NCBI GenBank assembly: GCA_007376265.1 | Contig: VMFW01000001.1 | Location: 2,455 to 66,454, forward strand | Direction of reading: 5' to 3' | Length of the DNA: 64,000 bases | From: Parcubacteria group bacterium Gr01-1014_20 | Lineage (GTDB): Bacteria > Patescibacteriota > Minisyncoccia > UBA6257 > 2-01-FULL-56-20 | In this document: piece by piece, positions 2,758 through 49,623 of the stretch | How the letters are laid out: each line of letters starts with the position of its first letter | Numbering within the stretch: position 1 is the first letter of the stretch | The notes under the pieces: generated by a model | The model's database searches: none | What the model was told of the DNA's origin: nothing | What the model saw: the letters and a program-made list of their open reading frames with translations, nothing else | Made by a program: the position numbers and the translations under genes

Positions 2758-2760
2758 CAA

Positions 2761-5467: not shown

Positions 5468-7183
5468 ATGCCAGGAATCAATTTTAAAGAGACAAAAAAG
5501 ATAATCGCTCCAGCCGGAGTTCAGGTTGAGTCGAACTACCTGAAAATTGGAGATAAGTTTGTTAAAACTTTCTTTATATTTTCCTATCCGAGATATCTTT
5601 CGACAGGTTGGTTCGAGCCACTCATAAACTTGCCAAATATTTTTGATATTTCGATTTTTATTAACCCGGTAGACACCGGGATGGCACTCAAAAAACTCCG
5701 AAAGAAGGCTGCTCAAATCGAGTCGCAGATCAGCGACCAGCAGGAAAAGGGACTGGTGAGGGATCCCCTACTCGAGACGGCATTTCAGGATGTGGAGAGC
5801 TTAAGAGACGCTCTCCAACAAGCGCAAGAAAGGCTTTTTGAGATTGGGGTTTACGTTTCGATTTATGCCGACGATCTGGAGGCCTTGGCTAAACTTGAAA
5901 GTCGAATCGACTCTTTAATGGAAGCCAAACTTATATACATCAAGCCCGCGCTTTTCCAGCAGATTGAGGGGCTGTCTTCAATTTTGCCTCTCGCAAACGA
6001 TGAGGTGGATGTGACGACCCCGATGAACTCGGCGCCGATCTCTTCTTTTTTCCCGTTCGTTTCGGAGGACCTAAACTCCAGCCAGGGCATTATGTACGGC
6101 ATTAACCGTCATAACAACAACCTGATTATTTTTGATCGTTTCTCGCTCGAGAATGCAAATCAGGTGGTTTTTGCCAAATCTGGTTCTGGAAAATCCTATG
6201 CCACTAAGCTCGAGATAATTCGCTACTTGATGATGGGGGTGGATGTTCTCGTAATTGATCCGGAAAATGAATACAAAAAACTCTGTGAAGCGTTTGGGGG
6301 AAGTTTCTTCAATATATCTCTCTCGTCTCACGAACATATTAATCCTTTTGATGTGCCGGTTGTTCCAGAAGGAGAAACGCCAACGGATGTTCTCCGCTCT
6401 CACATAGTTAACCTAGCTGGGTTATTGAAGCTAATGCTTGGAAACATTAGCGTGGAGGAAGACGCGCTCTTGGATCGAGCAATCACTGAAACTTACGCCT
6501 CAAGAGAGATCGTGCCCGGAGAAGATTTCTCCGGAGCCCAACCACCGCTGCTTGAAGACTTGGAAACTGTGCTTCGGAACCTCGAAGGAGGGCGGGGAAT
6601 AGCCGAGCGGCTTTACAAATTTACGAAGGGAAGTTTCGCTGGGTTTGTGAATCAGCCCACCAATATTGATATTGGTAATCGCTTGATTGTTTTTTCTATC
6701 CGCGACCTTGAAGACGAACTTAGGCCGATTGCGATGTACATAATTCTTAACTTCATTTGGAATTTAACTCGGGCGCAACTTAAGAAGAGGTTGCTAATTA
6801 TAGATGAGGCTTGGTGGATGATGAAATATGAAGATAGCGCTACATTTCTTTTTGGGTTGGTGAAGCGGGCGAGAAAATATTACTTAGGGGTTTCCACGAT
6901 CACTCAAGACGTCGAGGATTTCTTAAGGTCCCCTTACGGGCGGCCAATTATTACTAACTCTTCCATTCAGCTACTACTCAAGCAGGCGCCGGCGACGATT
7001 GATATCGTGGCTAAGGCTTTTGGGCTTACTGAAGCCGAAAAAAATATGCTTCTTTCGGCGGAGGTGGGGACGGGGCTTTTCTTCGCGGGCCGGAAACACG
7101 TGGCTATCCAGATTATCGCTTCTTTCTTTGAAGACCAACTAGTGACAACCAACCCCCAGCAACTCCTAGAGGAAAAAGCTTGA
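5468..7183 (+). CDS. virB4: VirB4/TrbE/PrgJ-family conjugation-type ATPase (C-terminal ATPase portion)
   Basis: Walker A AKSGSGKSYATK, Walker B LLIIDEAWWMM, and a YPRYLSTGWFEPLINLPNIFDIS segment typical of Gram-positive VirB4. SD GAGGTGG lies upstream within the previous ORF. Confidence 0.85.
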   Translation: MPGINFKETKKIIAPAGVQVESNYLKIGDKFVKTFFIFSYPRYLSTGWFEPLINLPNIFDISIFINPVDTGMALKKLRKKAAQIESQISDQQEKGLVRDPLLETAFQDVESLRDALQQAQERLFEIGVYVSIYADDLEALAKLESRIDSLMEAKLIYIKPALFQQIEGLSSILPLANDEVDVTTPMNSAPISSFFPFVSEDLNSSQGIMYGINRHNNNLIIFDRFSLENANQVVFAKSGSGKSYATKLEIIRYLMMGVDVLVIDPENEYKKLCEAFGGSFFNISLSSHEHINPFDVPVVPEGETPTDVLRSHIVNLAGLLKLMLGNISVEEDALLDRAITETYASREIVPGEDFSGAQPPLLEDLETVLRNLEGGRGIAERLYKFTKGSFAGFVNQPTNIDIGNRLIVFSIRDLEDELRPIAMYIILNFIWNLTRAQLKKRLLIIDEAWWMMKYEDSATFLFGLVKRARKYYLGVSTITQDVEDFLRSPYGRPIITNSSIQLLLKQAPATIDIVAKAFGLTEAEKNMLLSAEVGTGLFFAGRKHVAIQIIASFFEDQLVTTNPQQLLEEKA

Positions 7184-12152: not shown

Positions 12153-13517
12153 ATGGATTTAAATCAACTTTGGCAGTTAGCTTTAGAAGAGATGCGGGTT
12201 CAGCTTTCTAGGGCTAGTTTTGCGACCTGGCTCAAAAGTAGCCGCTTAGTTGATAGGAAAGAGGGGGTTTTTTACATCAGCCTTCCAAATGACTTTACAA
12301 AGCAGTGGATAGAAGAAAAATATCAGAAAAATATACTGGGAATTATCAGAAACCTTGATAGCTCAGCGAGGAAGCTCGAGTTTATCGTGGCGGGACACGA
12401 GCCAAAGATCATATCCAAACGAGACTTAGAGATTGATCTTAATCGGTTTGACAATCAGATAGACTTGGACTTCAAGGTAGACCCAGAAACCAACCTTAAT
12501 CCTCGATACACACTGAAGTCTTTCATTGTGGGATCTTCGAATGAGCTCGCGTATGCGGCGGCCTCGGCCATTGCCCAAGAGGTGGGCAAAAAATACAATC
12601 CTTTCTTTATCTATGGAGGGGTGGGCTTAGGCAAGACTCATTTAATCCAGGCGCTCGGAAATGAGATTGTGGCTATTTATAAGGGCAAAGTTAGGCCGAA
12701 GTATGTTTCTTCTGAAAAATTCACCAGCGATGTGGTTTGGGCGATCCGGAACAAGCGGATGGAGGATATTAAGAAGAAGTACCGGGACGTGGACGTTTTA
12801 ATAATTGATGATATTCAGTTCATTGGAGGTAAAGAGAAGACAGAGGAGGAATTTTTCCACACCTTCAACGCCCTCTACGAGAACAACAAGCAGATAATCA
12901 TTTCTTCCGACCGGCCACCTCAATCCCTCCCCACCCTTCAGGAGAGGCTTCGATCTCGGTTTGAGGGGGGACTAACGGCGGATATTGGTTACCCGGAATA
13001 CGAAATGCGGGTGGCAATCATTAACAACCGCCTCCAGGCTGGCGGAAGACAATTAGATGAGAAGGTGATCGATCTCGTGGCCAACTCAATAAAGAGAAAC
13101 ATAAGGGAACTAGAGGGGGTTTTGAATAAGATTTTATTTTACCAGGACAGAAAGGGGGTTCCGATTAGTGAGAAGATGGCGATCGAGATAGTCGAGAAGT
13201 CTACCCAGAACTTCTCTAAGCGAATAAGTGACGAACACATACTAAAAACGGTTGCCTCATTTTATAACGTTCAACTTGCCGATTTAGTGGGTCGTTCCCG
13301 GAAGAAGGAGATGGTGGAACCGCGACAGGTGACGATGTATTTGCTTCGGGATATCCTCCGGATGTCCTATCCATACATTGGGGAGAAGTTGGGGCGAGAT
13401 CACACAACAGTGATACACTCTTTTGAGAAGATAAACCACGAGATAAATAAGAATTCTCCCTTTAACCAGAAGATATTATTAATAAAAGAGGCTTTGTATA
13501 ACGGAAATAAACAGTAA
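12153..13517 (+). CDS. dnaA: Chromosomal replication initiator DnaA
   Basis: AAA+ Walker A GGVGLGKTHL, box VII, and a C-terminal DNA-binding domain. Confidence 0.95.
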   Translation: MDLNQLWQLALEEMRVQLSRASFATWLKSSRLVDRKEGVFYISLPNDFTKQWIEEKYQKNILGIIRNLDSSARKLEFIVAGHEPKIISKRDLEIDLNRFDNQIDLDFKVDPETNLNPRYTLKSFIVGSSNELAYAAASAIAQEVGKKYNPFFIYGGVGLGKTHLIQALGNEIVAIYKGKVRPKYVSSEKFTSDVVWAIRNKRMEDIKKKYRDVDVLIIDDIQFIGGKEKTEEEFFHTFNALYENNKQIIISSDRPPQSLPTLQERLRSRFEGGLTADIGYPEYEMRVAIINNRLQAGGRQLDEKVIDLVANSIKRNIRELEGVLNKILFYQDRKGVPISEKMAIEIVEKSTQNFSKRISDEHILKTVASFYNVQLADLVGRSRKKEMVEPRQVTMYLLRDILRMSYPYIGEKLGRDHTTVIHSFEKINHEINKNSPFNQKILLIKEALYNGNKQ

Positions 13518-13663
13518 CCATTATTAAACAGGTTAATAACATGTTTTTTTACTTTTTGTTTTCAATTAAATAAAATTTCTCTTTGTTTGTGGGCGCCAAA
13601 AACCTTTTTATTTTTTTCTCCACAAGTTAACACCCTTAATAAAAATAATAATAATATTAATTT
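13518..13663. promoter_or_regulatory. Candidate oriC/DUE region in the dnaA-dnaN intergenic spacer
   Basis: Very AT-rich run aataaaaataataataatattaattta, plus a near-consensus DnaA box ttctccaca. Confidence 0.35.
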
Positions 13664-14776
13664 ATGGAAGTAGTAGTTATTAGAAATAATTTAAAGGATG
13701 GTTTGGGAATTATTCAGGGCGCGGTTGGAGATAATTTAAAGTTACCGGTTTTAAAGTACGCCCTTTTTGAGGCGGAGGCAGATCGGATTCGGTTTACAGC
13801 AACCAATCTTGAGATTGCAATGACAAGTATTGTTTCCGGAAAAGTAATTGAGAAAGGGAGGGTGGGTATTCCAGTTCTAACACTTCTAAGTCTAATAAAT
13901 AATATTCAAACCGAGAGAATAAGCCTTCAGGGTAAAGGGGGCCAAGTTAATTTAAAAACCGACAACTATGAGGCTATGATTCAAACAATTTCCCCCGAGG
14001 AGTTTCCCACCATACCAAAGCTCAAAGAAAAAAAGCGATTTTTTGAGATTGAGGGGGGGGTTCTCCGAGATGCGTTAACTCAAGTGGTGGTGGCGACGCA
14101 GTTTTCTGAATTAAGGCCGGAGCTTAATAGTGTCCTCTTTGATTTTTCCATCGATAGTTTGAGGTTGGCGGCTACAGACAGCTTTAGGTTGGCCGAGAAA
14201 ACTATCCCCAACAGCCAATTTAAGACAAACCAAGAGGATAGCGTGAGACTACTAATCCCCCTCCGAACCTGTCATGAACTCTTGAGAGTCATTAAAGAAG
14301 ACCCCGTGCGCATATATTTTGAGAGCAACCAGATCCTTTTTGAGGCACAGTCGTTTGAGTTCATATCGAGGTTGATTGAGGGAAACTTTCCCGACTATAC
14401 CCAGGTTTTGCCCAAAAAATTCGGATCGGAGCTTGTTTTAAACAAAGAAAAATTTATAAACGCCGTGAAGCTGGCCGGGGTGTTTGGGGGTCAGAATAAC
14501 GAGGTTAGATTGAAAGTTCTAGACGGGGGGAAGGCGGTGGAACTAAAGTCGTCAAACCAAGATGTGGGTGAGAATCGTTATGTGCTTCCGGCCAAAGCGT
14601 CTCGCGAGACCGGGGAGGTAGTTTTCAATGGCAAGTACCTCTTGGATGCTCTCCGGGTTTTGAGAACCGAAGAGGTTTTTTTGGGGGTTAATGAGGAAGA
14701 AAGAAGAGCCACCCTCCTCAAATCACCAAACGAGAGTTCTTATTTCTATATTTTAATGCCCATTCTTAAGGCCTAG
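13664..14776 (+). CDS. dnaN: DNA polymerase III beta sliding clamp
   Basis: 370 aa, directly after dnaA. Confidence 0.9.
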   Translation: MEVVVIRNNLKDGLGIIQGAVGDNLKLPVLKYALFEAEADRIRFTATNLEIAMTSIVSGKVIEKGRVGIPVLTLLSLINNIQTERISLQGKGGQVNLKTDNYEAMIQTISPEEFPTIPKLKEKKRFFEIEGGVLRDALTQVVVATQFSELRPELNSVLFDFSIDSLRLAATDSFRLAEKTIPNSQFKTNQEDSVRLLIPLRTCHELLRVIKEDPVRIYFESNQILFEAQSFEFISRLIEGNFPDYTQVLPKKFGSELVLNKEKFINAVKLAGVFGGQNNEVRLKVLDGGKAVELKSSNQDVGENRYVLPAKASRETGEVVFNGKYLLDALRVLRTEEVFLGVNEEERRATLLKSPNESSYFYILMPILKA

Positions 14777-23739: not shown

Positions 23740-24840
23740 ATGTTTGATCGATTGAGTCAGTCGATAAGGGGTGGGGGTTTGGTGGCGGCAACGACGATTG
23801 GGGCCGGGATTTTTGTGCTCCCTTACGTTTTTTTACGAGGGGGCTGGCTCGTTGGTATTTTGTATTTTCTCATTCTGGGCTTTTTGGTGGTCTTCGCTCA
23901 CCATCTATTTTCGGAGGTTTTTTCAAAGGCGGGTGACAAGAGGGGGCTTTTGGGGTTAATTAGGGATAACTTCGGAGGAGGATTTTTTTACTTCGCGACT
24001 ATTGTGTTTAAAGGGGGACTTTTTTTAACGCTGGTTATTTATTTGCTCCTTGGGTCAAGCTTTATGACGATGGTTTTTCCCGGAGTAAATCACGGAGTGG
24101 CTTTGGCGTGGTTTTGGGTGATCGCTTCTTTCCCGATACTTTTAAGTTTGCGGCGATTCGTCGGGTTGGAGGTGGGAGCGACTCTGCTAATGGCCTTAAT
24201 TGTGGCTTTCGTTTTCGCGAAGGGTTTGCCGATTGATATTGAACGAGTCGGTCCGCCGGTCGGCGACTGGTTTTTTCCGTTTGGGCACGTGCTTTTTGCT
24301 CTGGCTGGATGGACGGCGGTCTACCCCTTATACGAAATTTCAAAAAAGAGAAAGAGCTTAATTTATCCGCTGATTTTCGGAACCGGAGTCTCGATCGCGA
24401 TTTACTTGTTTTTTGTTTTAGGGATAACGAGCGGGGCGCCAAACATCACTCCCGACGCTATTTCTGGTTTGACAGATTGGCCCAACTGGCAGATTGACCT
24501 TTTGGCGGTGCTTGGACTTTTCGCGATTTGGACTTCTTACGGGCCGATTGGTCTTGAGATCCGGAGTTCGTTTGAAAAAGACCTGAGGGTTTCTAGAATA
24601 GTAAGTTTCTTGGCGGTGCTTTTTGTCCCACTCATTCTGATTTGGTTAGGGTTTAATAACTTTTTAGAAATGGTGGGTTTGGTTGGCGGAGTTTTTCTGG
24701 CCTTCCAATATCTATTGATAGTTTTAGTTAGTAGAAAAGTGTTAGCTCTTAGGGGTTTTAGGAGAGTTGTTTCCGCTTTAGTGATTCTTATTTTTGCGCT
24801 GGCGGTTGTTTACGAAATTTACTATTTTGTAATAAAGTAG
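23740..24840 (+). CDS. Polytopic membrane protein, amino-acid permease-like
   Basis: About 10-11 TM helices; no soluble domain. Confidence 0.45.
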   Translation: MFDRLSQSIRGGGLVAATTIGAGIFVLPYVFLRGGWLVGILYFLILGFLVVFAHHLFSEVFSKAGDKRGLLGLIRDNFGGGFFYFATIVFKGGLFLTLVIYLLLGSSFMTMVFPGVNHGVALAWFWVIASFPILLSLRRFVGLEVGATLLMALIVAFVFAKGLPIDIERVGPPVGDWFFPFGHVLFALAGWTAVYPLYEISKKRKSLIYPLIFGTGVSIAIYLFFVLGITSGAPNITPDAISGLTDWPNWQIDLLAVLGLFAIWTSYGPIGLEIRSSFEKDLRVSRIVSFLAVLFVPLILIWLGFNNFLEMVGLVGGVFLAFQYLLIVLVSRKVLALRGFRRVVSALVILIFALAVVYEIYYFVIK

Positions 24841-24845
24841 AGCAG

Positions 24846-24917
24846 GCCCTCATAGTTGAATGGATACAATGTCTCCCTCCGAAGGAGGAGGTGCAGGTTC
24901 GATTCCTGCTGAGGGCA
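24846..24917 (+). tRNA. tRNA-Arg(CCG)
   Basis: Hand-folded cloverleaf: acceptor gccctca/tgagggc, anticodon loop ctCCGaa, T-loop ttcgatt, discriminator A. CCA is not encoded. Confidence 0.85.
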
Positions 24918-24936
24918 CACGAAGAGAGTAAAATTA

Positions 24937-24964
24937 AAGCCGCTTCTTTTTTGGGAAGCGGCTT
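24937..24964. terminator. Bidirectional terminator hairpin
   Basis: aagccgcttc ttttttgg gaagcggctt, a 10-bp stem lying between tRNA-Arg (plus) and the zinc-ribbon gene (minus). Confidence 0.6.
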
Positions 24965-24970
24965 TGGTTT

Positions 24971-25273
24971 CTAGCGCGCTCGAGGGGGGACTCTTTGATG
25001 GTTCGGGAGGCTCATAAGACCACCGGGCGGGTTCTGGTTTTCGGTCCGGAGGCTTTGCTCAGCAGCCTTTTGGAGTTTGTGGTTGTGGTGACAAGTCTTA
25101 CAACGCTTGGGGTCGTGGGCGTATCCCTTTTCTTCAAAGTACTCTCGGGCGCTTTTTGGGAAAGTGAACTCTTCGTGGCAGTCAACGCAGGTAAGAATAA
25201 CAGGTTTTCCTTCGGCGGATGGTCTTTCGCTTCTGGCGGTCGCCGAACTTCCGCCGGGAATACTCTCTGCCAT
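24971..25273 (-). CDS. Zinc-ribbon protein (C-x2-C ... C-x2-C), function unknown
   Basis: LTCVDCHEEFTF...KRCKTCHH motif. Confidence 0.4.
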   Translation of the reverse strand: MAESIPGGSSATARSERPSAEGKPVILTCVDCHEEFTFPKSAREYFEEKGYAHDPKRCKTCHHNHKLQKAAEQSLRTENQNPPGGLMSLPNHQRVPPRAR

Positions 25274-25439
25274 TTTTCCCCCAGAGAGGTTTGGTTGGGG
25301 TTTGTTTTTGTCTTGCCGAACGTGAGCGCTTTTTAGATACTTCTGTTCCTAAGTATAGTTTTTTATGCCGAGAAAGTAAACGCTGATATGAATCTTTAAG
25401 ACCTGTTTGGCTATTCTTTTTCTCCTGTATAATGTACGC

Positions 25440-26069
25440 ATGGATAAAGTCGGGCTTTTAAAAGAAGTTGAGCAAGAGATGATTCAAAATCGAGGCTTGC
25501 CTCTACGGGAGGCGAACTTAGTTTTTGGTGAAGGTGACGTTAACTGCAGTGTGATGTTTATCGGGGAAGCGCCGGGTTTTCATGAAAACGAGGCCAAACG
25601 GCCGTTTGTCGGACGGGGAGGACAGTTGTTGCGAAGGCTGATAAGGGAGCTCGGTTGGCTAGAGCAGGATGTCTATATCACAAATATCGTGAAGAGGCGG
25701 CCGCCGGAGAATCGGGACCCTAGCCCCGAGGAGATAGAGGCTTATCGACCCTACCTGGCGCGTCAGATTGAGATAATCAATCCCAAAATTGTTGTCCCTT
25801 TGGGCCGTTTTTCCATGAATTATTTTTTGCCGGAGGCGAAGATAACCCGTGACCAGGGAAGAGCTTTTAAGATTAACCATAGGCTTATTGTGCCGATGTT
25901 TCACCCGGCGGCGGCTCTTAGGTCAACTGGGGTTTTGGATCAGCTCCGGGCAAGTTTTTTGAGGTTGCCGCGTATAATCGGGGGAGAGGTTTTTGACGCG
26001 AACGTTTTAGTTTCATCACGAGAAGTAAAGCCGGCTACTCCCAAACAGGATCAAGTCAGCTTGTTTTAA
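25440..26069 (+). CDS. Uracil-DNA glycosylase, family 4
   Basis: GEAPGFHENEAKRPFVGRGGQLL and a C-terminal HPAA motif. The ATG at 25440 is preferred because the track start at 25407 is TTG. Confidence 0.85.
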   Translation: MDKVGLLKEVEQEMIQNRGLPLREANLVFGEGDVNCSVMFIGEAPGFHENEAKRPFVGRGGQLLRRLIRELGWLEQDVYITNIVKRRPPENRDPSPEEIEAYRPYLARQIEIINPKIVVPLGRFSMNYFLPEAKITRDQGRAFKINHRLIVPMFHPAAALRSTGVLDQLRASFLRLPRIIGGEVFDANVLVSSREVKPATPKQDQVSLF

Positions 26070-26091
26070 TTTTTTGGAATATAATTAAACC

Positions 26092-26442
26092 ATGGCCATC
26101 GTTTACCTTTTGAGTCGTCTTGGATATAGGACTTTGGATTTTTTTCATCACTGGTATTACCACGGATCAAGAGTTTTAACGAATTACTTTTTTGCATTCC
26201 TCGAGAAGCTGGATCGAGGGGTGGCCTTAAAAATAACACTGAAGTATTTTTTTCAGCCACTCTATAAAGACTACACGGTGATTGGCAGAATTCTGGGCGT
26301 GATTTTCAGAACTTTCAGAGTTGGCATTGGTTTCGTTGTCTATGGTTTTTTTGGATTTTTATTTACGGGCATTTACTTGGCTTGGGTTTTGCTTTTGCCA
26401 GCGATTCTTTTCTTTTTTGTGAGGAATTTATTTTTTCAATGA
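26092..26442 (+). CDS. Small membrane protein translationally coupled to the Clp-like ATPase
   Basis: Two C-terminal TM helices; its TGA stop overlaps the downstream ATG as ATGA. Confidence 0.5.
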   Translation: MAIVYLLSRLGYRTLDFFHHWYYHGSRVLTNYFFAFLEKLDRGVALKITLKYFFQPLYKDYTVIGRILGVIFRTFRVGIGFVVYGFFGFLFTGIYLAWVLLLPAILFFFVRNLFFQ

Positions 26443-28973
26443 GCATAAAGAAAGAAGAAGCAAGCGTCTATTTCGATGATCCGAGGCTCCGGATGGGCCT
26501 TTTCGGGCGGCTCACGGTCAGGGTGGCGGGGTACGTGGGGAATTTGGTTTTGGCGGTAGCTTGTTTTTCTTTGCTTTTTGCTTCGATTGGTTGGGCGCGT
26601 TATTTGGGACTTTTGTTTTTACTTTTCTTGATGGACAGATTTATTCATCGAGGAGAGGCGGACAAGCCTATTCCCGAGCGGCCAAAAGAGGGCCCGGTCA
26701 ACGTGGCGCTTTTTATGAGGCCGAGTGCTTTTTTGGCTCTCGAGAGGGCATACGATAAAAGTTTGATTTCAAAAACCAGCTTGTCCCTAGAGGCCCTAAG
26801 GGAGCTCTTGAACTTGCCGGAGATTCAAGAGGGTTTAGCAAGGATGGACGTCGAGCTTGGAGAGGTTAGGCAAAAGACCGAGGAGTTTTTACACCAAAGT
26901 GTTCAGATGATTCCGGGTGACCATAAACAAAAGAAAGAAGCGGCTCAAGAGATTGCCGTTAAGGCTTTTGAAATCGCCTCCCTTCATAACGATCAATTTG
27001 TTGAGCCCGCCAGCCTTTTTTCAGCCTTACCCCATACTTCGAAAGACGATTTTGTGAGTCGACTTTTTAATTTATTCGAGATTGAGAGCGACGACTTGGC
27101 CAAGGCGATGATGTTTGGGGTTTTAAAGAAACAGTTTTACTCAGTTGGGCGGATGCCGGGAAGTGTTGGGGAGTTTGTGAGGGGTCCGAAAAGAAGCTTG
27201 CGCCACCGGGTAATGAATCGAGCTTGGACGAGTCGGCCGACACCGACTTTGGATAGATATAGCTACGACTTAACCGATTTAGCGAGGCAAGAAAAAGTGG
27301 GTTTTCTAATTGGCCACAGGCTTGAGTTTGATAGATTGGTTGATGTGCTTTCTCGATCAGCGAATCCCAACGTGCTTTTGGTGGGTGAGGTAGGAGTGGG
27401 AAAGGAAACTTTGATTAGCCACCTGGCATTTCAGATCATTAAAGACAGGGTTCCGCCACCGCTTTTTGACAAACGATTAGTGTCCTTGAGTATCAGCAAC
27501 CTTGTGGCTGGAGCGGCGCCCGAGGAGCTTCAGGCCAGGTTGGATAGAATCATAAATGAGATCATTGCGGCTGGAAACATCATTCTCCACGTGCCGGATA
27601 TCCATAACTTAGTTAGAACTTCCGGGACGGCGTATCTCTCGGCCGCTGATGCCCTGATGCCGATATTTATGGATAATGCTTTTCCCATTATCGGGGCAAC
27701 TTTTCCCAAGGAGTATCGGGAAAACTTGGAGCCGAGGACTGATTTTAATGGGATTTTTGAAAGGATACAGGTTAGTGAAATAACTGAAGATGAGGCGGAA
27801 AGACTTTTGGTTTACGAGAGTTTGATTTTAGAGAGAGATTCGGGAGTGATGGTAACTTTCGGGGCGATTAAGAAAGCCGTGAAGCTGGCAAGAAAGTATT
27901 TTCGCAACAAGTTTTTACCGTCTTCTGCTGAAGAGCTCCTGAAGAACGCTTTGGCTGAAGCCAAAAGAAGAAAAGAGGTGGTGCTTGGACCAAACGAGAT
28001 TATTCGAACGGCCGAGGCTAAAGTTAATATTCCGATTCACGAGGCCTCGGAAGCGGAAGCTGCGGCGCTGGTTAACCTCGAAGAGATAATCCACGAGCGG
28101 CTAGTTGGTCAAGAGGAGGCGGTTCACGCAGTTGCAAACGTGCTTCGGGAGTATCGAAGCGGGCTTTCGAAGCCCGGAGGCCCAATTGCCAGCTTTCTTT
28201 TCGTTGGACCAACGGGAGTGGGCAAGACCGAGCTTTCCAAAATTTTGGCCAAGGTTCAGTTTGGCTCAATCGATCTCATGGTTCGCTTCGATATGTCCGA
28301 GTATCAGGACAAGCAGAGTTTTTATCGTTTCATCGGTTCGCCGGATGGGAAGATTTCCGGCGCCTTAACCGAAGCAATAACTCAAAAACCCTATAGCCTA
28401 ATTCTGCTCGATGAGTTCGAGAAAGCCTTTCCAGATATTTTGGATTTGTTTCTTCAGGTTTTTGACGATGGGAGGTTGACGGACAATTTGGGGCGGACGG
28501 TTGATTTCCAAAACACGATTATCATTGCGACCTCGAATGCTCAATCAGACATAATCAACGATGCTCTCCGACAAGGACAAACCATGAGTCAAATTGCGGA
28601 GTACTTAAAAAGTAAGCTAACTGATACTTTCAAACCGGAGCTTTTAAATCGTTTTTCGAAGATCGTGGTTTTCAATAATCTATCTCCTGGAGATCTCGAA
28701 AAAATAGCGCTGATTAATCTCAACGGTTTCTCAAAACTGGTGGCGGAGCAGGGGGTGGGATTGAAATTCAGTCTGGAGGCCGTTCGAGCGGTGGCGAAGC
28801 TCGGCTATGAGCCGGCTTTTGGAGCGCGACCGATTAATCGGGTGATTGAAGAGAGGCTCCGAGCTCCCTTGGCCGAGAAGATCCTAAAGCGGGAGGTTCA
28901 AAAAGGTAAAGAGTATCAGGTAACTTTCGAGGACGAGGCTTTCAAGTTTGTGCTTATGGAGAGAAATGGATAA
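26439..28973 (+). CDS. Membrane-anchored Clp/Hsp100-family AAA+ ATPase with a degenerate first nucleotide-binding domain
   Basis: Two N-terminal TM helices and Clp_N-like repeats. D1 reads GEVGVGKETL with no DE Walker B. D2 is canonical: GPTGVGKTELSK, LLDEFEKAFPDILDLFLQVFDDGRLTD, sensor-2. No IGF/IGL ClpP-docking loop seen. Confidence 0.8.
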   Translation: MSIKKEEASVYFDDPRLRMGLFGRLTVRVAGYVGNLVLAVACFSLLFASIGWARYLGLLFLLFLMDRFIHRGEADKPIPERPKEGPVNVALFMRPSAFLALERAYDKSLISKTSLSLEALRELLNLPEIQEGLARMDVELGEVRQKTEEFLHQSVQMIPGDHKQKKEAAQEIAVKAFEIASLHNDQFVEPASLFSALPHTSKDDFVSRLFNLFEIESDDLAKAMMFGVLKKQFYSVGRMPGSVGEFVRGPKRSLRHRVMNRAWTSRPTPTLDRYSYDLTDLARQEKVGFLIGHRLEFDRLVDVLSRSANPNVLLVGEVGVGKETLISHLAFQIIKDRVPPPLFDKRLVSLSISNLVAGAAPEELQARLDRIINEIIAAGNIILHVPDIHNLVRTSGTAYLSAADALMPIFMDNAFPIIGATFPKEYRENLEPRTDFNGIFERIQVSEITEDEAERLLVYESLILERDSGVMVTFGAIKKAVKLARKYFRNKFLPSSAEELLKNALAEAKRRKEVVLGPNEIIRTAEAKVNIPIHEASEAEAAALVNLEEIIHERLVGQEEAVHAVANVLREYRSGLSKPGGPIASFLFVGPTGVGKTELSKILAKVQFGSIDLMVRFDMSEYQDKQSFYRFIGSPDGKISGALTEAITQKPYSLILLDEFEKAFPDILDLFLQVFDDGRLTDNLGRTVDFQNTIIIATSNAQSDIINDALRQGQTMSQIAEYLKSKLTDTFKPELLNRFSKIVVFNNLSPGDLEKIALINLNGFSKLVAEQGVGLKFSLEAVRAVAKLGYEPAFGARPINRVIEERLRAPLAEKILKREVQKGKEYQVTFEDEAFKFVLMERNG

Positions 28974-28982
28974 AATAGGTGA

Positions 28983-29639
28983 GTGAGGATTAAAATAAAC
29001 GTTGATTTAAGGGTTGGGCGAGTCATTAAGTATTTTATTTTAGCGGACCTGGCGCTTTTAGCGGGTTGGGGCTTGGTGGGGCCGATCTTCTCTGTGTTTG
29101 TGATTGAGAGGGTGGCCGGGGCGACACTCGTGACCGTGGGGATTGCGGCCGGGATTTACTGGGTTTTAAAGTCCCTTCTTCAACTGCCGATAGCCACCTA
29201 CTTAGACAAAAAAGAGGGCGAAAGGGATGATTTTCTAGCTCTCATAATCGGGCTTTTTGTCTCCGCTTTCACGGCCATTGCTTACAACTTTATCACTCAA
29301 GTTTGGCATCTGTATTTAGTTGAGATTATCCATGCGATGGCTTTCGCTCTTTACGTTCCAGCCTGGTCGGCGATGTTTTCACGACACGTGGATAAAGATA
29401 GGGTTTCTTTCGACTGGTCGCTCGACAGCACGGTGGCGGGCTTGTCCGCGGGGGTGAGTGGTATTTTGGGAGGGGCGGTCGCAAGCGCGTGGGGTTTCCA
29501 TTGGGTTTTTATCCTAGCCGGCATATTTTCGGCCGTTTCAGCGTTTGTGCTTATTATGGCGCCGGATTTTATTTTTCCTCCACGGACAACCGAGAATCCA
29601 GTGATTAAGGATCATACGCCGGCGAATATCAGTCACTAA
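28983..29639 (+). CDS. Six-TM membrane protein resembling the C-terminal half of an MFS transporter
   Basis: GTG start, 218 aa, 6 TM helices. Confidence 0.4.
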   Translation: MRIKINVDLRVGRVIKYFILADLALLAGWGLVGPIFSVFVIERVAGATLVTVGIAAGIYWVLKSLLQLPIATYLDKKEGERDDFLALIIGLFVSAFTAIAYNFITQVWHLYLVEIIHAMAFALYVPAWSAMFSRHVDKDRVSFDWSLDSTVAGLSAGVSGILGGAVASAWGFHWVFILAGIFSAVSAFVLIMAPDFIFPPRTTENPVIKDHTPANISH

Positions 29640-29649
29640 AAAAGTAACA

Positions 29650-30174
29650 ATGGATCAAGAAATTTCAGCGGGAATAGTGGTTTACCGAAGGACTCAAGAA
29701 GGACCCAAGTTTTTGGTGCTTTACCACGGCCATAATTACTGGAACTTTGCTAAGGGTAAAATTGAGAGTGAGGAGAAAAGTTTTGCCGCCGCTCTCCGCG
29801 AAACGAGAGAGGAGACGGGGCTTGGGGAGAAAGACCTAAGGATCACGCGAAACTTTAAGGCTTACGAGCGATTTCACTTTAGGCGTTCTGGCAAGCAGGT
29901 TTTCAAGATCGTTATTTTTTATATGGCGGAGACCACGAAGCACGAGATAAAGATCTCTCACGAGCATCAAGGCTACGCCTGGTTTTTGTATAATGAAGCT
30001 AAGGGTATTTTAGGGAAGTATAAAGACAGCCAAAAAGTTTTAAGAAAAGCTTATGAACACCTTCGTCCAAAAAGTGATCGCAGTCGTCCGGCGAATCCCC
30101 AAAGGCCAAACCCGAACCTACCAGGAGGTGGCGCGCCGCGCCGGATCCCCCCGAGCGTACCGGGCAGTCGGTAA
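29650..30174 (+). CDS. NUDIX hydrolase
   Basis: Nudix box GKIESEEKSFAAALRETREETGL. The last ~40 codons overlap the next gene and read as low-complexity Pro/Arg sequence. Confidence 0.8.
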   Translation: MDQEISAGIVVYRRTQEGPKFLVLYHGHNYWNFAKGKIESEEKSFAAALRETREETGLGEKDLRITRNFKAYERFHFRRSGKQVFKIVIFYMAETTKHEIKISHEHQGYAWFLYNEAKGILGKYKDSQKVLRKAYEHLRPKSDRSRPANPQRPNPNLPGGGAPRRIPPSVPGSR

Positions 30175-30313
30175 TATTTTGAATCGCCACGGGGGGATGG
30201 AAAAAGGCATTCCGTGTCATCGAGTCATTAAGTCTGACGGGAGTGTGGGGGGTTATGCTTGGGGGTCAAAGAAGAAAGAAAAATTATTAAGGAAAGAAGG
30301 AGCCATTTTCTGA
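30053..30313 (+). CDS. Standalone MGMT/Ogt C-terminal domain protein (methylated-DNA-protein-cysteine methyltransferase family)
   Basis: PCHRV active-site motif and a TYQEVA helix. Confidence 0.8.
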   Translation: MNTFVQKVIAVVRRIPKGQTRTYQEVARRAGSPRAYRAVGNILNRHGGMEKGIPCHRVIKSDGSVGGYAWGSKKKEKLLRKEGAIF

Positions 30314-30331
30314 GGTGGCGGCTTTTCGGTG

Positions 30332-30360
30332 TTGACTTGTGTTGAGATGTTTTTTATCCT
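30332..30360 (+). promoter_or_regulatory. Sigma-70-type promoter for the HTH gene
   Basis: TTGACT, 17-nt spacer, TATCCT; strong SD AAGGAGG before the ATG at 30403. Confidence 0.5.
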
Positions 30361-30402
30361 GAACCAAGCCAAAATAAGGAGGGTGACGATGAGGAGGAAG
30401 AC

Positions 30403-30633
30403 ATGAAAAGATGCGGGGGAATGGTTGAACTTTCTAGCTTTCGGGAGCTGCTAGCGAGTTTGATTGACGCCAAGTTTAGCTCTCGAAACGCGTTTTGTGA
30501 TGTGATGAGGCTAGATCGAGGGCAGTTAAGCCGTGTTTTGGCTGGAACAAGCAGCTTTTCGGTCGAGGCCTTAGAGAGAGTTTTCAGCTCTTTGGGTTAC
30601 TCTGTGGTTTTGGTGCCGAAAAAGGAACCTTAG
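30403..30633 (+). CDS. Small XRE/Cro-type helix-turn-helix DNA-binding protein
   Basis: 76 aa with the HTH pattern SRNAFCDVMRLDRGQLSRVLAG. Confidence 0.6.
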   Translation: MKRCGGMVELSSFRELLASLIDAKFSSRNAFCDVMRLDRGQLSRVLAGTSSFSVEALERVFSSLGYSVVLVPKKEP

Positions 30634-30666
30634 GGTCGACTCAGCCACAAACAAAAAAGCCATCGT

Positions 30667-31014
30667 TTAAGAGATGGCTTTTTCTATGACTTTTTTGAAG
30701 ACGGCGGGTTCATGTTCGGCAAGGTCGGCCAGGATCTTTCGGTCGAGTTTGATGTTTTTCTTTTTTAACGCCGCGATTAGTTTACTATAGCTAAGATTTT
30801 CAGCTCTAGCGGCGGCGTTGATTTTCACGTTCCAGAGGGCGCGAGCGGTTCGCTTTTTTTCTTTGCGGCCGCGGAATTTTCTCGAGAGGGCGTGGAGCAG
30901 GGCTTCCTTAGCGGCGCGTTCTTTAGATTTGCGGCCCCAGCGAAAACCCTTGGTTTGCTTTAGGACTTTGGATCTCTTTCTCTTGGCGGTTGTGCCTCTT
31001 TTAACTCTGGGCAT
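30667..31014 (-). CDS. rplT: 50S ribosomal protein L20
   Basis: MPRVKRGTTAKRKRSKVLKQTKGF N-terminus. Confidence 0.95.
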   Translation of the reverse strand: MPRVKRGTTAKRKRSKVLKQTKGFRWGRKSKERAAKEALLHALSRKFRGRKEKKRTARALWNVKINAAARAENLSYSKLIAALKKKNIKLDRKILADLAEHEPAVFKKVIEKAIS

Positions 31015-42996: not shown

Positions 42997-45900
42997 ATGT
43001 TCGTTAAAGATTTAAAAGAATTTAATTTGCCCAAAACCGAGGAAAAGGTTTTGGAGTACTGGAAGAAAAACCAAATTTTCGAAAAAACACTCGCTTTAAG
43101 GAAACCCACCTCCGCTAAAGCTTCGAAGGGCAAAAAACACTTCGTGTTTTTTGAGGGGCCACCGACGGCGAACGGCCGGCCTGGGATCCACCACGTTTTG
43201 GCGCGAGCTTTTAAGGACGTCATTTTACGGTATAAAACCATGCGGGGTTTTAACGCGCCGCGGCGGGCGGGGTGGGACACGCACGGACTGCCAGTAGAGA
43301 TTCAGGTTGAAAAAGAGCTGGGCTTGAAGTCGAAAAAAGATATTGAAAAATTTGGGATCGCGGAGTTTAACAAAAAGTGCAAGGAATCGGTCTGGAAATT
43401 TAAGGATGAGTGGGAGAGGTTAACCGAGCGGATGGGTTTTTGGTTGGATATGAAAGACCCTTATGTCACTTACGAGAAAGATTATATTGAAACTTTGTGG
43501 TGGATCATCGCGCAGTTTTGGAAGAAGAAGCTTTTATACAAAGGAAACCGAATAGTGAATTGGTGCACCCGTTGCGGAACAGGACTTTCTTCACACGAGA
43601 TGGCGCAGGGGTACAAGGAAGTGACGGATAATTCGGTTTATGTAAAGTTTAAACTGAAGAAGGGCCAGAAGGTCGGAAAAGATTTTTCGACAAACGATAA
43701 AACCTATATTTTATCTTGGACAACCACGCCCTGGACGTTGCCCGGTAACGTAGCGCTCGCAGCTGGAGAGAAGATACGTTACGTCTTTATTGAAGCCGAT
43801 GGAGAAGTTTTGGTTTTAGCTAAAGAAAGGATGGAGGCGGTGGGAGTTCAGGGAAGAATTATTAAAGAAACGATGGGCAAAGATTTGGTAGGTTTGTCGT
43901 ACCAACCGCTTTTTGAGGTGGACCCACTCAAGAGCAAAAATTCTTACAAAGTTTATGCGGCGGATTTTGTGACGACGACGGATGGAACAGGTGTGGTGCA
44001 TACGGCGGTCATGTACGGAGAGGATGACTACAAGTTGGGCGTGAAGATGGGTTTGACCCAACACCACACCGTGGACGTGGCAGGGAAATTTACAAAAGAC
44101 GTAAAAGTTCTGGCGGGTATGTACGTCAAAGATAAAAAAACTGAAGAAAAAATTCTTAATTATCTAAAAGCTAGAAGTTATCACCTGAAAACTGAACCAC
44201 ACAAACATGACTATCCGCATTGCTGGCGATGTTCGACGCCTCTGCTTTATTATGCGAGGTCGTCTTGGTTTGTGGCGATGTCGAAGCTCAAAAAAGAACT
44301 TTTAGCTAGTAACAATAAGATCAATTGGACGCCAGAGCACGTTAAAAATGGAAGGTTTGGCGAGTGGCTTCGAGAGGTTAAAGATTGGAATTTTTCGCGG
44401 GAAAGATACTGGGGGACGCCCTTGCCGATTTGGGAGTGTAGCAAATGCGGGATTACGGAAGCAATTGAGAGTTTAGCTGATTTAGATGGAAAAACCGGAG
44501 GGGCGAGAAATCGGTATTGGGTGATGAGACACGGACAATCCGAGGCGATGATGGTGGGCGTGATTGACGCTGGTAAAGGAAAGTATCGTTTGACTGACCT
44601 GGGACGAAAACAAGCGGAAAAAACCGCCAAGAGGTTGGCCAAGGAAAAAATTGATTTAGTAATTAGCTCCGATGTTTTGAGGACTAAAGAGACGGCGCAA
44701 ATTGTGGCCAGGGTTTTGGAGGTGGGGAAGCCGGTTTTAGATGAGCGTCTTCGCGAGATAAATTTGGGGGTTTTGGCCGGAAAATCTGTTCGGGAGTATT
44801 CGGAGATTTTGCCTACGCTCGATTCCAGGATTTTAGGAAAACCAGAAGGTGGGGAGTCGATAACAGATGTGAGAACCAGGATGTGGAGTTTCGTTCAGGA
44901 GATTGAGAAGAAGTATAAAGGCAAAAATATTTTGCTAGTTAGTCACGAGTACCCGATATGGATTTTAAGTCAGGTGATGAATGGCTGGACGAATCAGGAA
45001 CTCATTCTAGAAAAAACTAAAGGGGGAAAAAACTATATTGAGGCTGGTGAGGTTTGGGGGGTGGCGCATAAGGTTTTGCCGAGAGATAATACCGGTCTGG
45101 TTGATTTGCACCGACCGTATATCGACGAGATTTTCCTAAAGTGTTCGAAGTGCGAAGGAAAAATGAAGAGGGTAAAAGAATTGGCGGACGTCTGGTTTGA
45201 TTCTGGGGCGATGCCGCTAGCACAGTCTCATTTTCCATTCGACCGTGCAAAAAGTTCCAAGTCACAAATAACAAATAACAAAGAACACGTTGATTATCCG
45301 GCGGACTATATTTGCGAGGCAGTGGATCAGACGCGGGGATGGTTTTATACGCTTTTAGCGATAGCCACGGCTCTCGGTAAGAACGCGCCTTACCGAAATG
45401 TAATTTCGCTCGGACATATCAACGACAAACACGGGCAAAAAATGTCCAAATCAAAAGGAAACATTGTTGATCCGTGGATGATGGCAGAAAAATATGGCAT
45501 GGATGCCGTGCGTTGGTACATGTATGCTGCGACACCGCCGGGAGAGCCAAAAAATTTTGACGAGCAAGAGCTTCTTAAAACCTACAGGCGGATGCATTTA
45601 ATTTTGTGGAACTCCCTTCTTTTCTATAAAACATACGCCGTTTCTGGGTCCAGTCGTAAGTTGGGGTTGCGGCCGAAGTCTAAGAATTTGCTTGATTTAT
45701 GGATGCTCTCTCGGCTTGATGAGGCGATAGTCAGAGCGACTAAAGCGATGGATCGATATGATATTCGGGGGGCTGCGCTCGAGATTGAAAAACTGGTGGA
45801 CGATCTTTCTAGATGGTACATTCGTCGCTCGCGACGAAGGTTGCAACGACCGGAGAGTAAAGCCGATTTTGAAGCTTGTGCGTCTACGCTTCAGCATGTC

Positions 45901-46563
45901 CTAGCCTCGATTTCTAAAATGATGGCGCCGTTTAATCCTTTCTTTTCGGAGGTTGTTTGGAATACTTTGGGAGGCGCGAGCTCTATTCACCTTGAAGATT
46001 GGCCGACAAGAAACATTAAGAGCCAAGCGCCAGGCAATAAGTTGGTGGAAGAGATGGGAGTGATACGCGGCTTAGCAACCCTGGGTTTGGCGAAAAGAGC
46101 CGAGGTGGGGGTGAAGGTGAGACAGCCCCTCTCGGTGATGAAAATAAAGCCCAAGGTTACCAACAAGCAGTCGCTTCAGATTTTGGCTGATGAGGTCAAT
46201 GTTAAAAAGACTATCGTTGATGCGAAGATAAAAGGTGAGATCGAACTCGATACAAGGATAACTGCGGAGTTGAAAGAAGAGGGGATTTTAAGGGAGCTCG
46301 TACGGGCGATTCAGGATTTGCGTCAGAGAGCGGGGCTGGAGCCTGGCGACGCGATTGTTGTGATGTTGGAGTTGCCGGATAACTTGCGAGAGATAGTTTT
46401 GTCCGCCGGAGGCCGATCCTCCTCGGGAGGAAAAAATGAAGCCTTTTTGAAGAATGAAACTGGAGCTAAAAGTATTGAATACAAAAGATCAGAAAAGTTT
46501 GAAGCGGAAGCGATCACGAAGTTTGAAGATTCAGAGGTTTGGTTGGCAGTTAGGAAGATATAA
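42997..46563 (+). CDS. ileS: Isoleucyl-tRNA synthetase carrying an inserted histidine-phosphatase-like domain
   Basis: HIGH motif PPTANGRPGIHHV, CP1 editing motifs (TTPWTLPGN, GTGVVHTA), KMSKS. About 190 aa (RYWVMRHGQSE ... LLVSHEYPIW) lie between PLPIWECSKCG and DLHRPYID. Confidence 0.95.
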   Translation: MFVKDLKEFNLPKTEEKVLEYWKKNQIFEKTLALRKPTSAKASKGKKHFVFFEGPPTANGRPGIHHVLARAFKDVILRYKTMRGFNAPRRAGWDTHGLPVEIQVEKELGLKSKKDIEKFGIAEFNKKCKESVWKFKDEWERLTERMGFWLDMKDPYVTYEKDYIETLWWIIAQFWKKKLLYKGNRIVNWCTRCGTGLSSHEMAQGYKEVTDNSVYVKFKLKKGQKVGKDFSTNDKTYILSWTTTPWTLPGNVALAAGEKIRYVFIEADGEVLVLAKERMEAVGVQGRIIKETMGKDLVGLSYQPLFEVDPLKSKNSYKVYAADFVTTTDGTGVVHTAVMYGEDDYKLGVKMGLTQHHTVDVAGKFTKDVKVLAGMYVKDKKTEEKILNYLKARSYHLKTEPHKHDYPHCWRCSTPLLYYARSSWFVAMSKLKKELLASNNKINWTPEHVKNGRFGEWLREVKDWNFSRERYWGTPLPIWECSKCGITEAIESLADLDGKTGGARNRYWVMRHGQSEAMMVGVIDAGKGKYRLTDLGRKQAEKTAKRLAKEKIDLVISSDVLRTKETAQIVARVLEVGKPVLDERLREINLGVLAGKSVREYSEILPTLDSRILGKPEGGESITDVRTRMWSFVQEIEKKYKGKNILLVSHEYPIWILSQVMNGWTNQELILEKTKGGKNYIEAGEVWGVAHKVLPRDNTGLVDLHRPYIDEIFLKCSKCEGKMKRVKELADVWFDSGAMPLAQSHFPFDRAKSSKSQITNNKEHVDYPADYICEAVDQTRGWFYTLLAIATALGKNAPYRNVISLGHINDKHGQKMSKSKGNIVDPWMMAEKYGMDAVRWYMYAATPPGEPKNFDEQELLKTYRRMHLILWNSLLFYKTYAVSGSSRKLGLRPKSKNLLDLWMLSRLDEAIVRATKAMDRYDIRGAALEIEKLVDDLSRWYIRRSRRRLQRPESKADFEACASTLQHVLASISKMMAPFNPFFSEVVWNTLGGASSIHLEDWPTRNIKSQAPGNKLVEEMGVIRGLATLGLAKRAEVGVKVRQPLSVMKIKPKVTNKQSLQILADEVNVKKTIVDAKIKGEIELDTRITAELKEEGILRELVRAIQDLRQRAGLEPGDAIVVMLELPDNLREIVLSAGGRSSSGGKNEAFLKNETGAKSIEYKRSEKFEAEAITKFEDSEVWLAVRKI

Positions 46564-48822: not shown

Positions 48823-49623
48823 TTAGCGAGGGGTCAACGGATTTTTTTGTACGTCGTATTTTTCCAAGTACTTTTGGTAGGAAGCCAATGGCGCTCCCAA
48901 AAACTTACTAGTAACACCTTGGTCGAGCTTAATACTCTTGGCTTTGTTTAGGCGGTGGCTTAAGAAAAATTTTTGGATAGCTCGGTCATGACCGAAGACG
49001 AATTTCGCCCCTTTCTTTACGATTTCATCTAGTGAGGTTATGAGAGTCCTTGATTCGTTCGAAAGGTTTTCGAATTTAGCTTGAAGGGTTACTAGAATTT
49101 GCCAGTCTTTTTCGTTGAGAGCGATAGACCAAGAAGAGCATAGAACGACAAAGTTCGTCTTTTTGTCTCGTTTGTTTCCCGTGAGTAGTGTTTTCGGGAG
49201 GGTGTGCATAAAGTCACCCAACGCCTTGGGCGATTTCGTTAAAACTTTCTTGAGTTCACGCAGGAGTCTTAAATCCTTTTCGCTGGGGGCAACTTTTTTT
49301 CTTGGCGTGACGTAAGATTTTTTATCTTTTGTAATATTGAGAAGTTTGAGTTCGAGGGTAGTTGCATTTTTTTTGATGAGAGATATTTCTTCTTCTATTT
49401 CTCGTTTTAAGGTTTGGGGAGTACCTAGGTCTTTCTTTGCGGCTACGCCGATCCAGTTTCCTCCTATGAGGCATAGCCGATTTCGAAAAAGTTTTACCGG
49501 GTGAGTTACGTCTTTTTCCTCGAGAAAAACTTCGGCTGGATTTGACTCACGATAAATAATGCCAACACTTGCGATGTTGTTAACTTTCGGTTTTGCGCTG
49601 GCGTTGTCGTTTCTCTCCAGCAT
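48823..49623 (-). CDS. Nudix-like protein (Lys-rich, AT-rich paralog of 47138-47923)
   Basis: GGNWIGVAAKKDLGTPQTLKREIEEEI. Confidence 0.5.
   Translation of the reverse strand: MLERNDNASAKPKVNNIASVGIIYRESNPAEVFLEEKDVTHPVKLFRNRLCLIGGNWIGVAAKKDLGTPQTLKREIEEEISLIKKNATTLELKLLNITKDKKSYVTPRKKVAPSEKDLRLLRELKKVLTKSPKALGDFMHTLPKTLLTGNKRDKKTNFVVLCSSWSIALNEKDWQILVTLQAKFENLSNESRTLITSLDEIVKKGAKFVFGHDRAIQKFFLSHRLNKAKSIKLDQGVTSKFLGAPLASYQKYLEKYDVQKNPLTPR

Follow-up and report, generated by a model that had tools for sequence, protein, structure and literature searches.

Hsp100 proteins are textbook threading motors. In the type II AAA+ proteins NSF, PEX1/PEX6 and p97, which belong to other AAA+ clades, one conserved ring (D2 of NSF, D1 of PEX1/PEX6 and of p97) does not hydrolyse nucleotide and serves as a scaffold for assembly, and the second ring provides the motor; the active rings of these proteins keep aromatic pore loops, and the proteins are not embedded in the membrane by helices of their own. 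In ClpB, translocation depends on Y251 and Y653, two residues that make contact with the substrate (10.1101/428458). Torsin is a Clp-related, membrane-associated protein that has no aromatic pore loops and works with a membrane-protein cofactor, and threading by Torsin has been judged unlikely (PMC5425593). Here, we describe a pair of genes in a 64,000-nucleotide stretch of DNA from Parcubacteria group bacterium Gr01-1014_20, the whole of which is referred to as the window. The first gene encodes a small protein of 116 amino acids (aa) and the second a Clp/Hsp100-derived ATPase, predicted to be anchored in the membrane, whose product is identical to GenBank TSC82849.1, annotated as "ATP-dependent Clp protease ATP-binding subunit ClpC". 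A search of the literature on membrane-anchored Clp/Hsp100 proteins in the candidate phyla radiation (CPR), Patescibacteria or Parcubacteria found nothing relevant. We propose, at about even confidence, that the pair encodes a lineage-specific membrane module of Paceibacteria/Parcubacteria, in which the ATPase would form a complex with its small partner independently of ClpP and DnaK, with the first AAA+ module (D1) as a scaffold, the second (D2) as the sole motor, and no threading of the substrate.

Fold and motifs of the ATPase

Pfam recognised in the ATPase AAA_2 at aa 582-741 (3.8e-49) and ClpB_D2-small at aa 748-828 (2.4e-19), found no protease domain, and gave nothing more than sub-threshold generic P-loop matches for D1. 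Among the PDB sequences, the best matches were S. aureus ClpC (6em8) and T. thermophilus ClpB (1qvr), both with E ~1e-112. Each of these matches came in two parts, one for D1 and one for D2, and skipped the M-domain, that is, residues 413-456 of ClpC and 416-523 of ClpB. The AlphaFold2 model, built with 74 homologues, had a mean predicted local distance difference test score (pLDDT) of 78.7 and contained helices at aa 21-46 and 51-69, an eight-helix domain at aa 95-236, a disordered stretch at aa 244-263 and two AAA+ modules; no long coiled coil or helix pair of the M-domain type was present in it. When the full-length model was compared with the ClpC and ClpB protomers, the target TM-score was ~0.8 over D1-D2, with 36-37% identity over ~580 aligned columns. 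The two-ring layout of class I Clp/Hsp100 proteins was found in full, comprising a Clp N-domain fold, two AAA+ modules, and AAA_2 with the ClpB_D2-small lid. The scores against the NCBIfam models, as compared with the equivalog cut-offs, were 471 versus 1232 bits for ClpB (TIGR03346), 392 versus 1417 for NF008118 and 428 versus 993 for ClpA (TIGR02639), and those for ClpV, ClpK and ClpG were low as well.

Residues were counted by alignment column in 120 relatives with 57-85% identity to the query, and in 34 further, distant members with 37-51% identity (154 in all). In the alignments with ClpC and ClpB, the D1 Walker A motif reads GEVGVGKE where those proteins have GEPGVGKT, and the position of the Thr was occupied by Glu in 113 of the 120 relatives. 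The Walker B motif reads IILHVPD as compared with ILFIDE; Pro stood at the position of the Asp in 116/120, and the Asp-Glu pair was found in none of the 154 members. The arginine-finger pair of ClpC, RR, has been replaced by Gly-Ile. The D1 pore loop has changed from KYRGEFEERL to A-PEELQARL with deletion of the tyrosine, a residue that was present at this site in 0/154 members. Among the distant members, the D1 Walker A drifts between GKE, GKD, GKT, GKS, GR, GM and SEM. We compared the query gene with that of the closest species representative (L005), and the ratio of nonsynonymous to synonymous substitution rates (dN/dS) was 0.037 for D1, 0.039 for D2 and 0.046 for the whole gene, with values of 0.03-0.05 in every domain except the N-terminal tail and transmembrane region (0.19). 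The mean identity to the query was 64% for D1, 70% for D2 and 39% for the N-domain. Judged from its sequence, D1 appears to be catalytically silent but not decaying, and the purifying selection on it is as strong as that on D2.

The ATPase motifs of D2 were invariant in all 120 relatives, namely Walker A (GPTGVGKT), Walker B (LLDE), sensor-1 (TSN), the arginine finger (NR, in FKPELLNRF) and sensor-2 (GAR). The D2 pore loop, by comparison, has changed from GAPPGYVGxxxGGQLTE to GSPDGKIS----GALTE, with a deletion of four residues and no aromatic. The position equal to ClpB Y653 is Lys, Thr, Gln, Ser, Ala or Arg across the family, and is the most variable site in the large subdomain of D2 (99th percentile of entropy), flanked by the invariant GSPDG and GALT; in the distant members the loop varies further, and in one of them it is deleted. 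No aromatic pore-loop residue was found in either ring of the 154 members examined, and the second D2 pore-loop position partly keeps Ile/Val/Thr. D2 also contained no conserved [ILVM]G[FLIM] tripeptide for ClpP docking. Sites of this pattern recurred only at aa 287 (D1), aa 56 (the second transmembrane helix) and aa 437, with none inside the D2 insert. The insert between sensor-1 and the arginine finger had a single fixed length in 120/120 relatives and aligned without gaps to ClpB, and the same insert showed a 7-residue gap relative to ClpC, at the place where ClpC carries a longer, GF-containing insert.

A preliminary description of this DNA had called D1 degenerate (a GKE Walker A and a Walker B lacking DE), D2 canonical, and an IGF/L loop for ClpP absent. 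The first of these claims was borne out family-wide, as neither the alignments to ClpC (6em8) and ClpB (1qvr) nor the column counts revealed an intact GKT together with DE. The second is right for the ATPase motifs of D2 but not for its pore loop, in which GYVG has become GKIS next to the four-residue deletion. The third agrees with the lack of the tripeptide in D2 and with the ClpB-like length of the insert.

Predicted membrane anchor, N-domain and small partner

The hydropathy of the query (Kyte-Doolittle, 19-aa window) reached at least 1.6 at aa ~25-65. With this criterion, an N-terminal hydrophobic span was present in 152 of the 154 full-length family members, with a median length of 44 residues, which leaves room for two helices, and a window of this kind occurred elsewhere in the protein in 9/154 members. 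A 15-aa window was dropped as too permissive, with peaks in the AAA cores. The helices at aa 21-46 and 51-69 of the AlphaFold2 model had a pLDDT of ~90. The hairpin is flanked at both ends by Arg/Lys residues on the soluble-domain side, consistent with an N-in, C-in topology. Hydropathy and AlphaFold2 together thus predict that the ATPase is held at the membrane by its own N-terminal hairpin. In the model, a strand at aa 9-11, lying inside the conserved F.DPRL.MT..GR, pairs with a strand at aa 86-88 beyond the hairpin, which comes after the conserved EAD.PL.ELP..G.VN motif, suggesting that the N-domain is packed near the anchor.

No Clp_N match was obtained on the ATPase with Pfam. A family profile of the N-region gave weak matches to the N-domains of ClpC and ClpA (E 0.008-0.02), and the N-region modelled alone had a pLDDT of 83.9. 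Foldseek searches with aa 95-236 returned the N-domains of ClpA, ClpB, ClpC1, Hsp104 and PfHSP101, with E from 3e-4 and target TM-scores of 0.65-0.79. On the strength of the model, this domain is taken as a real but very divergent Clp N-domain. Between it and D1 lies the linker RHR[IV]MNRAWTSRPTP (aa 255-268), which is nearly invariant, with a mean entropy of 0.20, as low as that of the catalytic motifs. The linker zone at aa 244-263 had a pLDDT below 50 in the AlphaFold2 monomer and is predicted to be disordered. The combination of high conservation with predicted disorder is typical of an interaction motif, and the linker is a candidate docking or regulatory element.

The small protein encoded upstream has a conserved N-terminal part rich in aromatic residues and Arg (DFFHHWY, PLYKDY, GR..G..FR), which is probably cytoplasmic, and a C-terminal hydrophobic hairpin of ~40-45 residues, whose hydrophobic span was present by hydropathy in 120/120 homologues. 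We found 999 homologues of this protein, every one named hypothetical and without a Pfam domain. The protein itself had no match in Pfam, NCBIfam or PADLOC, and an alignment of 41 members found no relative among PDB sequences or in Pfam. The ATGA overlap of the two genes suggests that their translation is coupled; in the relatives, the genes overlap by 4-26 nt according to the gene callers. In 83 of 84 loci, a profile search placed the small-protein gene directly before the ATPase gene and in the same orientation, with its end abutting or overlapping the ATPase start; the sole miss was a contig cut at the start of the ATPase gene. The pair was also present in 6/6 loci whose ATPase is only 37-45% identical to the query, and it persisted where the flanks had altered, with an HD-domain gene replacing the uracil-DNA glycosylase (UDG) gene upstream in L087, UDG on the opposite strand in L088 and iPGM downstream in L089.

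Two transmembrane helices at the N-terminus and Clp_N-like repeats behind them, as given in the preliminary description, are thus upheld, the helices as a prediction from hydropathy and AlphaFold2, and the repeats by Foldseek and weak profile matches in place of a Pfam match. The 116-aa membrane protein upstream and its ATGA stop/start overlap with the ATPase were confirmed in the open reading frame (ORF) coordinates, and the pairing recurs in the other genomes searched. The length given there for the ATPase, 845 aa, had counted the stop codon; the protein has 844 aa.

The ATPase gene is followed, after 9 nt, by a gene for a half-size membrane protein of the major facilitator superfamily (MFS) type, which is found at this place in 48 of the 84 loci. 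The MFS_1 protein probably stands outside the core module, and as an obligatory third component it was rejected, being present in just 48/84 loci. As a half transporter (MFS_1, 218 aa), it would have to dimerise.

Features, distribution and genomic setting

Table 1. Features of the gene pair and of its downstream neighbour, in positions of the window.
Feature	Positions	Strand	Basis or remark
Small membrane protein gene, 116 aa	26092..26442	+	ORF; TSC82848.1 "Uncharacterized protein"
Clp/Hsp100-derived ATPase gene, predicted membrane-anchored, 844 aa + stop codon	26439..28973	+	
ATGA start/stop overlap of both genes	26439..26442	+	TGA 26440-26442, ATG 26439-26441
N-terminal hydrophobic hairpin, aa 21-69, two predicted transmembrane helices, 3-4 residue loop	26499..26645	+	hydropathy, AlphaFold2
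Divergent Clp N-domain (as modelled), aa 95-236, eight helices in two repeats	26721..27146	+	Foldseek, weak profile matches
Family-specific linker motif RHRVMNRAWTSRPT, aa 255-268	27201..27242	+	column entropy
D1, aa 271-530, conserved yet catalytically degenerate AAA+ module	27249..28028	+	alignments, column counts
D1 Walker A GEVGVGKE	27384-27407	+	
D1 pore-loop remnant VAGAAPEELQARL	27504-27542	+	
D1 Walker B IILHVPD	27579-27599	+	
D2, aa 531-844, AAA_2 + ClpB_D2-small, ATPase motifs intact	28029..28970	+	
D2 Walker A	28206-28229	+	
D2 pore loop GSPDGKISG, non-aromatic, shortened	28335-28361	+	
D2 Walker B	28398-28415	+	
D2 Arg-finger region	28629-28658	+	
Half-size MFS_1 membrane protein, 218 aa, ~six helices	28983..29639	+	Pfam MFS_1

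A promoter and terminator scan of 24800-30700 gave counts not above those of shuffled sequences and was hence uninformative.

The N-terminal 265 residues of the ATPase were searched against 1.84 billion cluster representatives (50% identity clusters), giving 202 hits. All 34 full-length hits were 782-851 aa long, and the shorter ones resembled fragments from contig ends; by these sequence matches, the N-region appears exclusive to this ATPase architecture. A signature-pattern search with the linker motif in GTDB found 286 species-representative genomes. In the 80 loci that were retained, all record titles were of Patescibacteria, covering Paceibacteria/Paceibacterota, Parcubacteria, Liptonbacteria, Wolfebacteria, Minisyncoccia and generically labelled metagenome-assembled genomes (MAGs). 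Many related MAG contigs titled 'uncultured Candidatus Saccharibacteria' (L010-L012, L018-L020 and others) had 59-66% identity to the window and a gene order of the Paceibacteria type in common with it, and their labels look generic or wrong.

The setting of the pair in the window is core chromosome, with genes for DnaA, DnaN, PBP1, a MurE-type ligase, RNase J-like proteins, UDG, NUDIX, IF3 and L20, and, further, for several aminoacyl-tRNA synthetases, NusA, an H+-translocating pyrophosphatase (H+-PPase) and FtsH. ClpP was not present in the 64-kb window, and no other Clp-type ATPase was found in ~1.1 Mb of flanks of the related loci. The pair stands amid a row rich in DNA-repair genes, comprising UDG (25407-26069), NUDIX (29650-30174) and an 86-aa MGMT-type ORF with a PCHRV motif (30053-30313). 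The last of these shares ~120 nt with the 3' end of the NUDIX ORF, which is of low complexity, and relatives carry a PolX gene inserted in the same row. The FtsH gene (61150-63057, minus strand) is canonical, with FtsH_ext, AAA and Peptidase_M41, and encodes the standard membrane quality-control AAA+ protease.

Several other features of the window were recorded. An isoleucyl-tRNA synthetase-type ORF of 1188 aa (42997-46563, plus strand) carries a histidine-phosphatase domain (His_Phos_1) inserted at aa 508-668 within its class I catalytic domain, an architecture also seen in the distant Paceibacteria locus L088 (10029 onward). Two tRNA-synt_1b ORFs (class Ib, Tyr/Trp-type) lie at 49623-50747 on the minus strand and 59008-60204 on the plus strand, the first of which matches the profile in two stretches. 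A TraG/VirD4-like P-loop ATPase of 571 aa (5468-7183, plus strand) is encoded among what are otherwise housekeeping genes, in a genome that is very small, and the membrane H+-PPase is full-length (56295-58268, plus strand). The GC skew was positive in nearly all 2-kb bins of 1-64000, on both sides of dnaA-dnaN (12153-14776), and negative only in 2001-4000.

Proposed role, alternatives and comparison with known systems

In the mechanism that we favour, the ATPase would sit on the cytoplasmic side of the membrane, anchored there by a helical hairpin of its own, with the small partner as a two-helix membrane protein, and both proteins would be made in coupled fashion. D1 would be a pseudo-ATPase, in many members perhaps still able to bind nucleotide but unable to hydrolyse it, and would most likely serve as an assembly and coupling scaffold, by analogy with the inactive rings of NSF or PEX1/6. 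D2 would be the sole motor and, because its arginine finger is kept, is expected to require ring assembly. The lack of pore tyrosines, of an M-domain, of a ClpP loop and of constraint on the D2 tip suggests that the protein most likely does not carry out processive threading, protease feeding or cooperation with DnaK. Instead, ATP hydrolysis in D2 might drive conformational work on or with the small partner and other membrane-proximal clients; the N-domain and the invariant RHRxMNRAWTSRPTP linker could serve to hold these. The net role would be that of a remodelling or switching ATPase at the membrane face, not of an unfoldase. The architecture, the states of the motifs, their conservation throughout the family, the pairing of the genes and the purifying selection were observed; we infer the oligomeric state, the topology, the partner complex and the kind of work in this scheme.

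Some points weigh against this scheme. Neighbouring genes tend to stay together in genomes as small as these, and adjacency is accordingly a weaker argument, although the pair survives changes of its flanks. The physical complex with the small protein is read from gene order, the transmembrane topology of the ATPase is a prediction by hydropathy and AlphaFold2, and the function is likewise deduced from sequence and predicted models. Moreover, threading by a protein that has no aromatic pore residues is unlikely yet possible, the second loop position being partly kept as Ile/Val/Thr.

The main alternative is that the ATPase is a true unfoldase for the extraction or quality control of membrane proteins, like Msp1 or a protease-less FtsH, which pulls its clients through the central channel by non-aromatic loops. 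In the model, the anchor sets the N-domain and the entry face of D1 at the membrane with the D2 motor behind them, as such an unfoldase would need; the ATPase machinery of D2 is complete, arginine finger included, the second pore-loop position retains Ile, Val or Thr, and the Clp N-domain is a known module for binding substrates or adaptors. However, aromatic pore-loop residues are missing from both rings in all 154 members, the tyrosines are required for threading by ClpB (10.1101/428458), no site of D2 is less constrained than the tip, which is deleted in one member, and FtsH is already encoded in the window. We therefore regard this alternative as rather unlikely. The preliminary description had suggested a machine for membrane-protein extraction or quality control, or one linked to secretion. 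A membrane-proximal role is likely, but the classical threading that this implies is opposed by the same observations on the pore loops, the variable D2 tip and FtsH, and these roles are unsupported as stated, since threading, on which they rely, requires the pore-loop tyrosines in Clp/Hsp100 proteins.

A second alternative, which we consider improbable, is an ATP-gated membrane conduit for macromolecules, lipids or other cargo, leading across or into the symbiont membrane, in which six ATPase hairpins and six small-protein hairpins (24 helices) would build a ring or pore, with the D2 cycle controlling its opening or assembly. Each protein brings a conserved helical hairpin, the genes are coupled with an apparent 1:1 stoichiometry, the family is limited to an episymbiotic, transport-dependent lineage, and the half-size MFS neighbour is frequent. 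On the other hand, the hairpins show no sign of polar residues that would line a pore, the periplasmic loop is merely 3-4 residues long, and the PDB and Pfam searches of the small protein revealed no homology to any channel or secretion component. The conduit is purely an architectural speculation. In a related arrangement, which we would count as a long shot, an Hsp100-derived ring with a dead D1 and D2 as its sole motor, fused through its hairpins to a ring of small-protein hairpins, might act at the cell membrane of these ultra-small episymbionts as a non-threading, ATP-driven gate or remodeller. It might move or insert proteins, lipids or nucleic acids, cargo that such host-dependent cells have to exchange, and would be a kind of bacterial membrane machine not recognised before.

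That the protein is an ordinary ClpC, feeding ClpP or working with adaptors, is very improbable. This reading has in its favour the database names, the best PDB sequence match (S. aureus ClpC) and the TPTLD at the start of D1, and it is contradicted by scores far below the NCBIfam equivalog cut-offs and by the absence of a ClpP loop and an M-domain, a dead D1 and the loss of the pore tyrosines. Every tested defining feature beyond the shared fold fails, and the name "ClpC" given to this ATPase in the databases is probably wrong. Finally, the degenerate D1 motifs and the matches of the PADLOC DolB and PDC-M37B profiles to D2 might point to a paralogue in decay or to an ATPase of anti-phage defence akin to Dodola DolB. 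This is scarcely credible in view of the purifying selection (dN/dS 0.046 for the whole gene and 0.037 for D1) and of the ORF, which is intact in hundreds of species and holds a fixed place in the core genome beside UDG, NUDIX, L20 and IF3. As separate candidates, a pseudogene was ruled out by the dN/dS of 0.03-0.05 across all domains bar the N-terminal tail and transmembrane region, and a defence system was rejected, as the PADLOC profiles matched, with part of their length, nothing but the generic AAA_2 region of D2 (aa 523-708) and the partner has no PADLOC match.

If the mechanism that we favour is true, it would show how an Hsp100 scaffold can be repurposed in a widespread and strongly conserved bacterial branch, with one ring silenced, the gripping tyrosines lost and an obligatory small membrane partner gained, and would provide a bacterial counterpart to the poorly understood Torsin problem. 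In hundreds of Patescibacteria genomes, moreover, these proteins are systematically mis-annotated as "ClpC" or "ATP-dependent Clp protease ATP-binding subunit", an error that the analysis corrects; the ClpC label implies a capacity for ClpCP proteolysis that the sequence does not support. Attention is also drawn to two uncharacterised proteins that define a lineage of organisms about whose membrane biology and dependence on a host little is known.

Among the known systems, ClpC of B. subtilis and S. aureus (6em8, 7abr, 9gi1) shares with this ATPase the order N-domain-D1-D2, the fold, AAA_2 with the D2-small domain, and the TPTLD...DLT at the start of D1. As compared with ClpC, this ATPase has a predicted membrane hairpin and a dead D1, and lacks the M-domain (for MecA and McsB), the ClpP-docking loop and the pore tyrosines. 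ClpB/Hsp104 (1qvr, 6qs6) gave the best NCBIfam score, and this ATPase resembles it in the length of the D2 insert and in having all D2 catalytic residues. It differs from ClpB in that it has no equivalents of Y251 and Y653, an inactive D1, a predicted membrane anchor and no coiled-coil M-domain, and hence no site for coupling to DnaK. In FtsH and Msp1/ATAD1, anchoring by N-terminal transmembrane segments sets the ring entry at the membrane, as is predicted for this ATPase. Both FtsH and Msp1 are single-ring AAA proteins whose pore loops are aromatic, and FtsH in addition carries an M41 protease domain, whereas this ATPase has two Hsp100-type modules and neither an aromatic pore loop nor a protease domain. 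The likeness to Torsin with LAP1/LULL1, of the eukaryotic ER and nuclear envelope, lies in the lack of aromatic pore loops, the association with the membrane and the membrane-protein partner, and is one of analogy, with homology not implied. Torsin has a single AAA+ domain and relies for its arginine finger on a cofactor whose AAA+ fold is degenerate; in contrast, this ATPase keeps the arginine finger of D2 (120/120) and has a second, dead ring, and its 116-aa partner has no detectable AAA+ fold. With these differences in mind, we suggest Torsin as the closest working analogy for this ATPase and its small partner.

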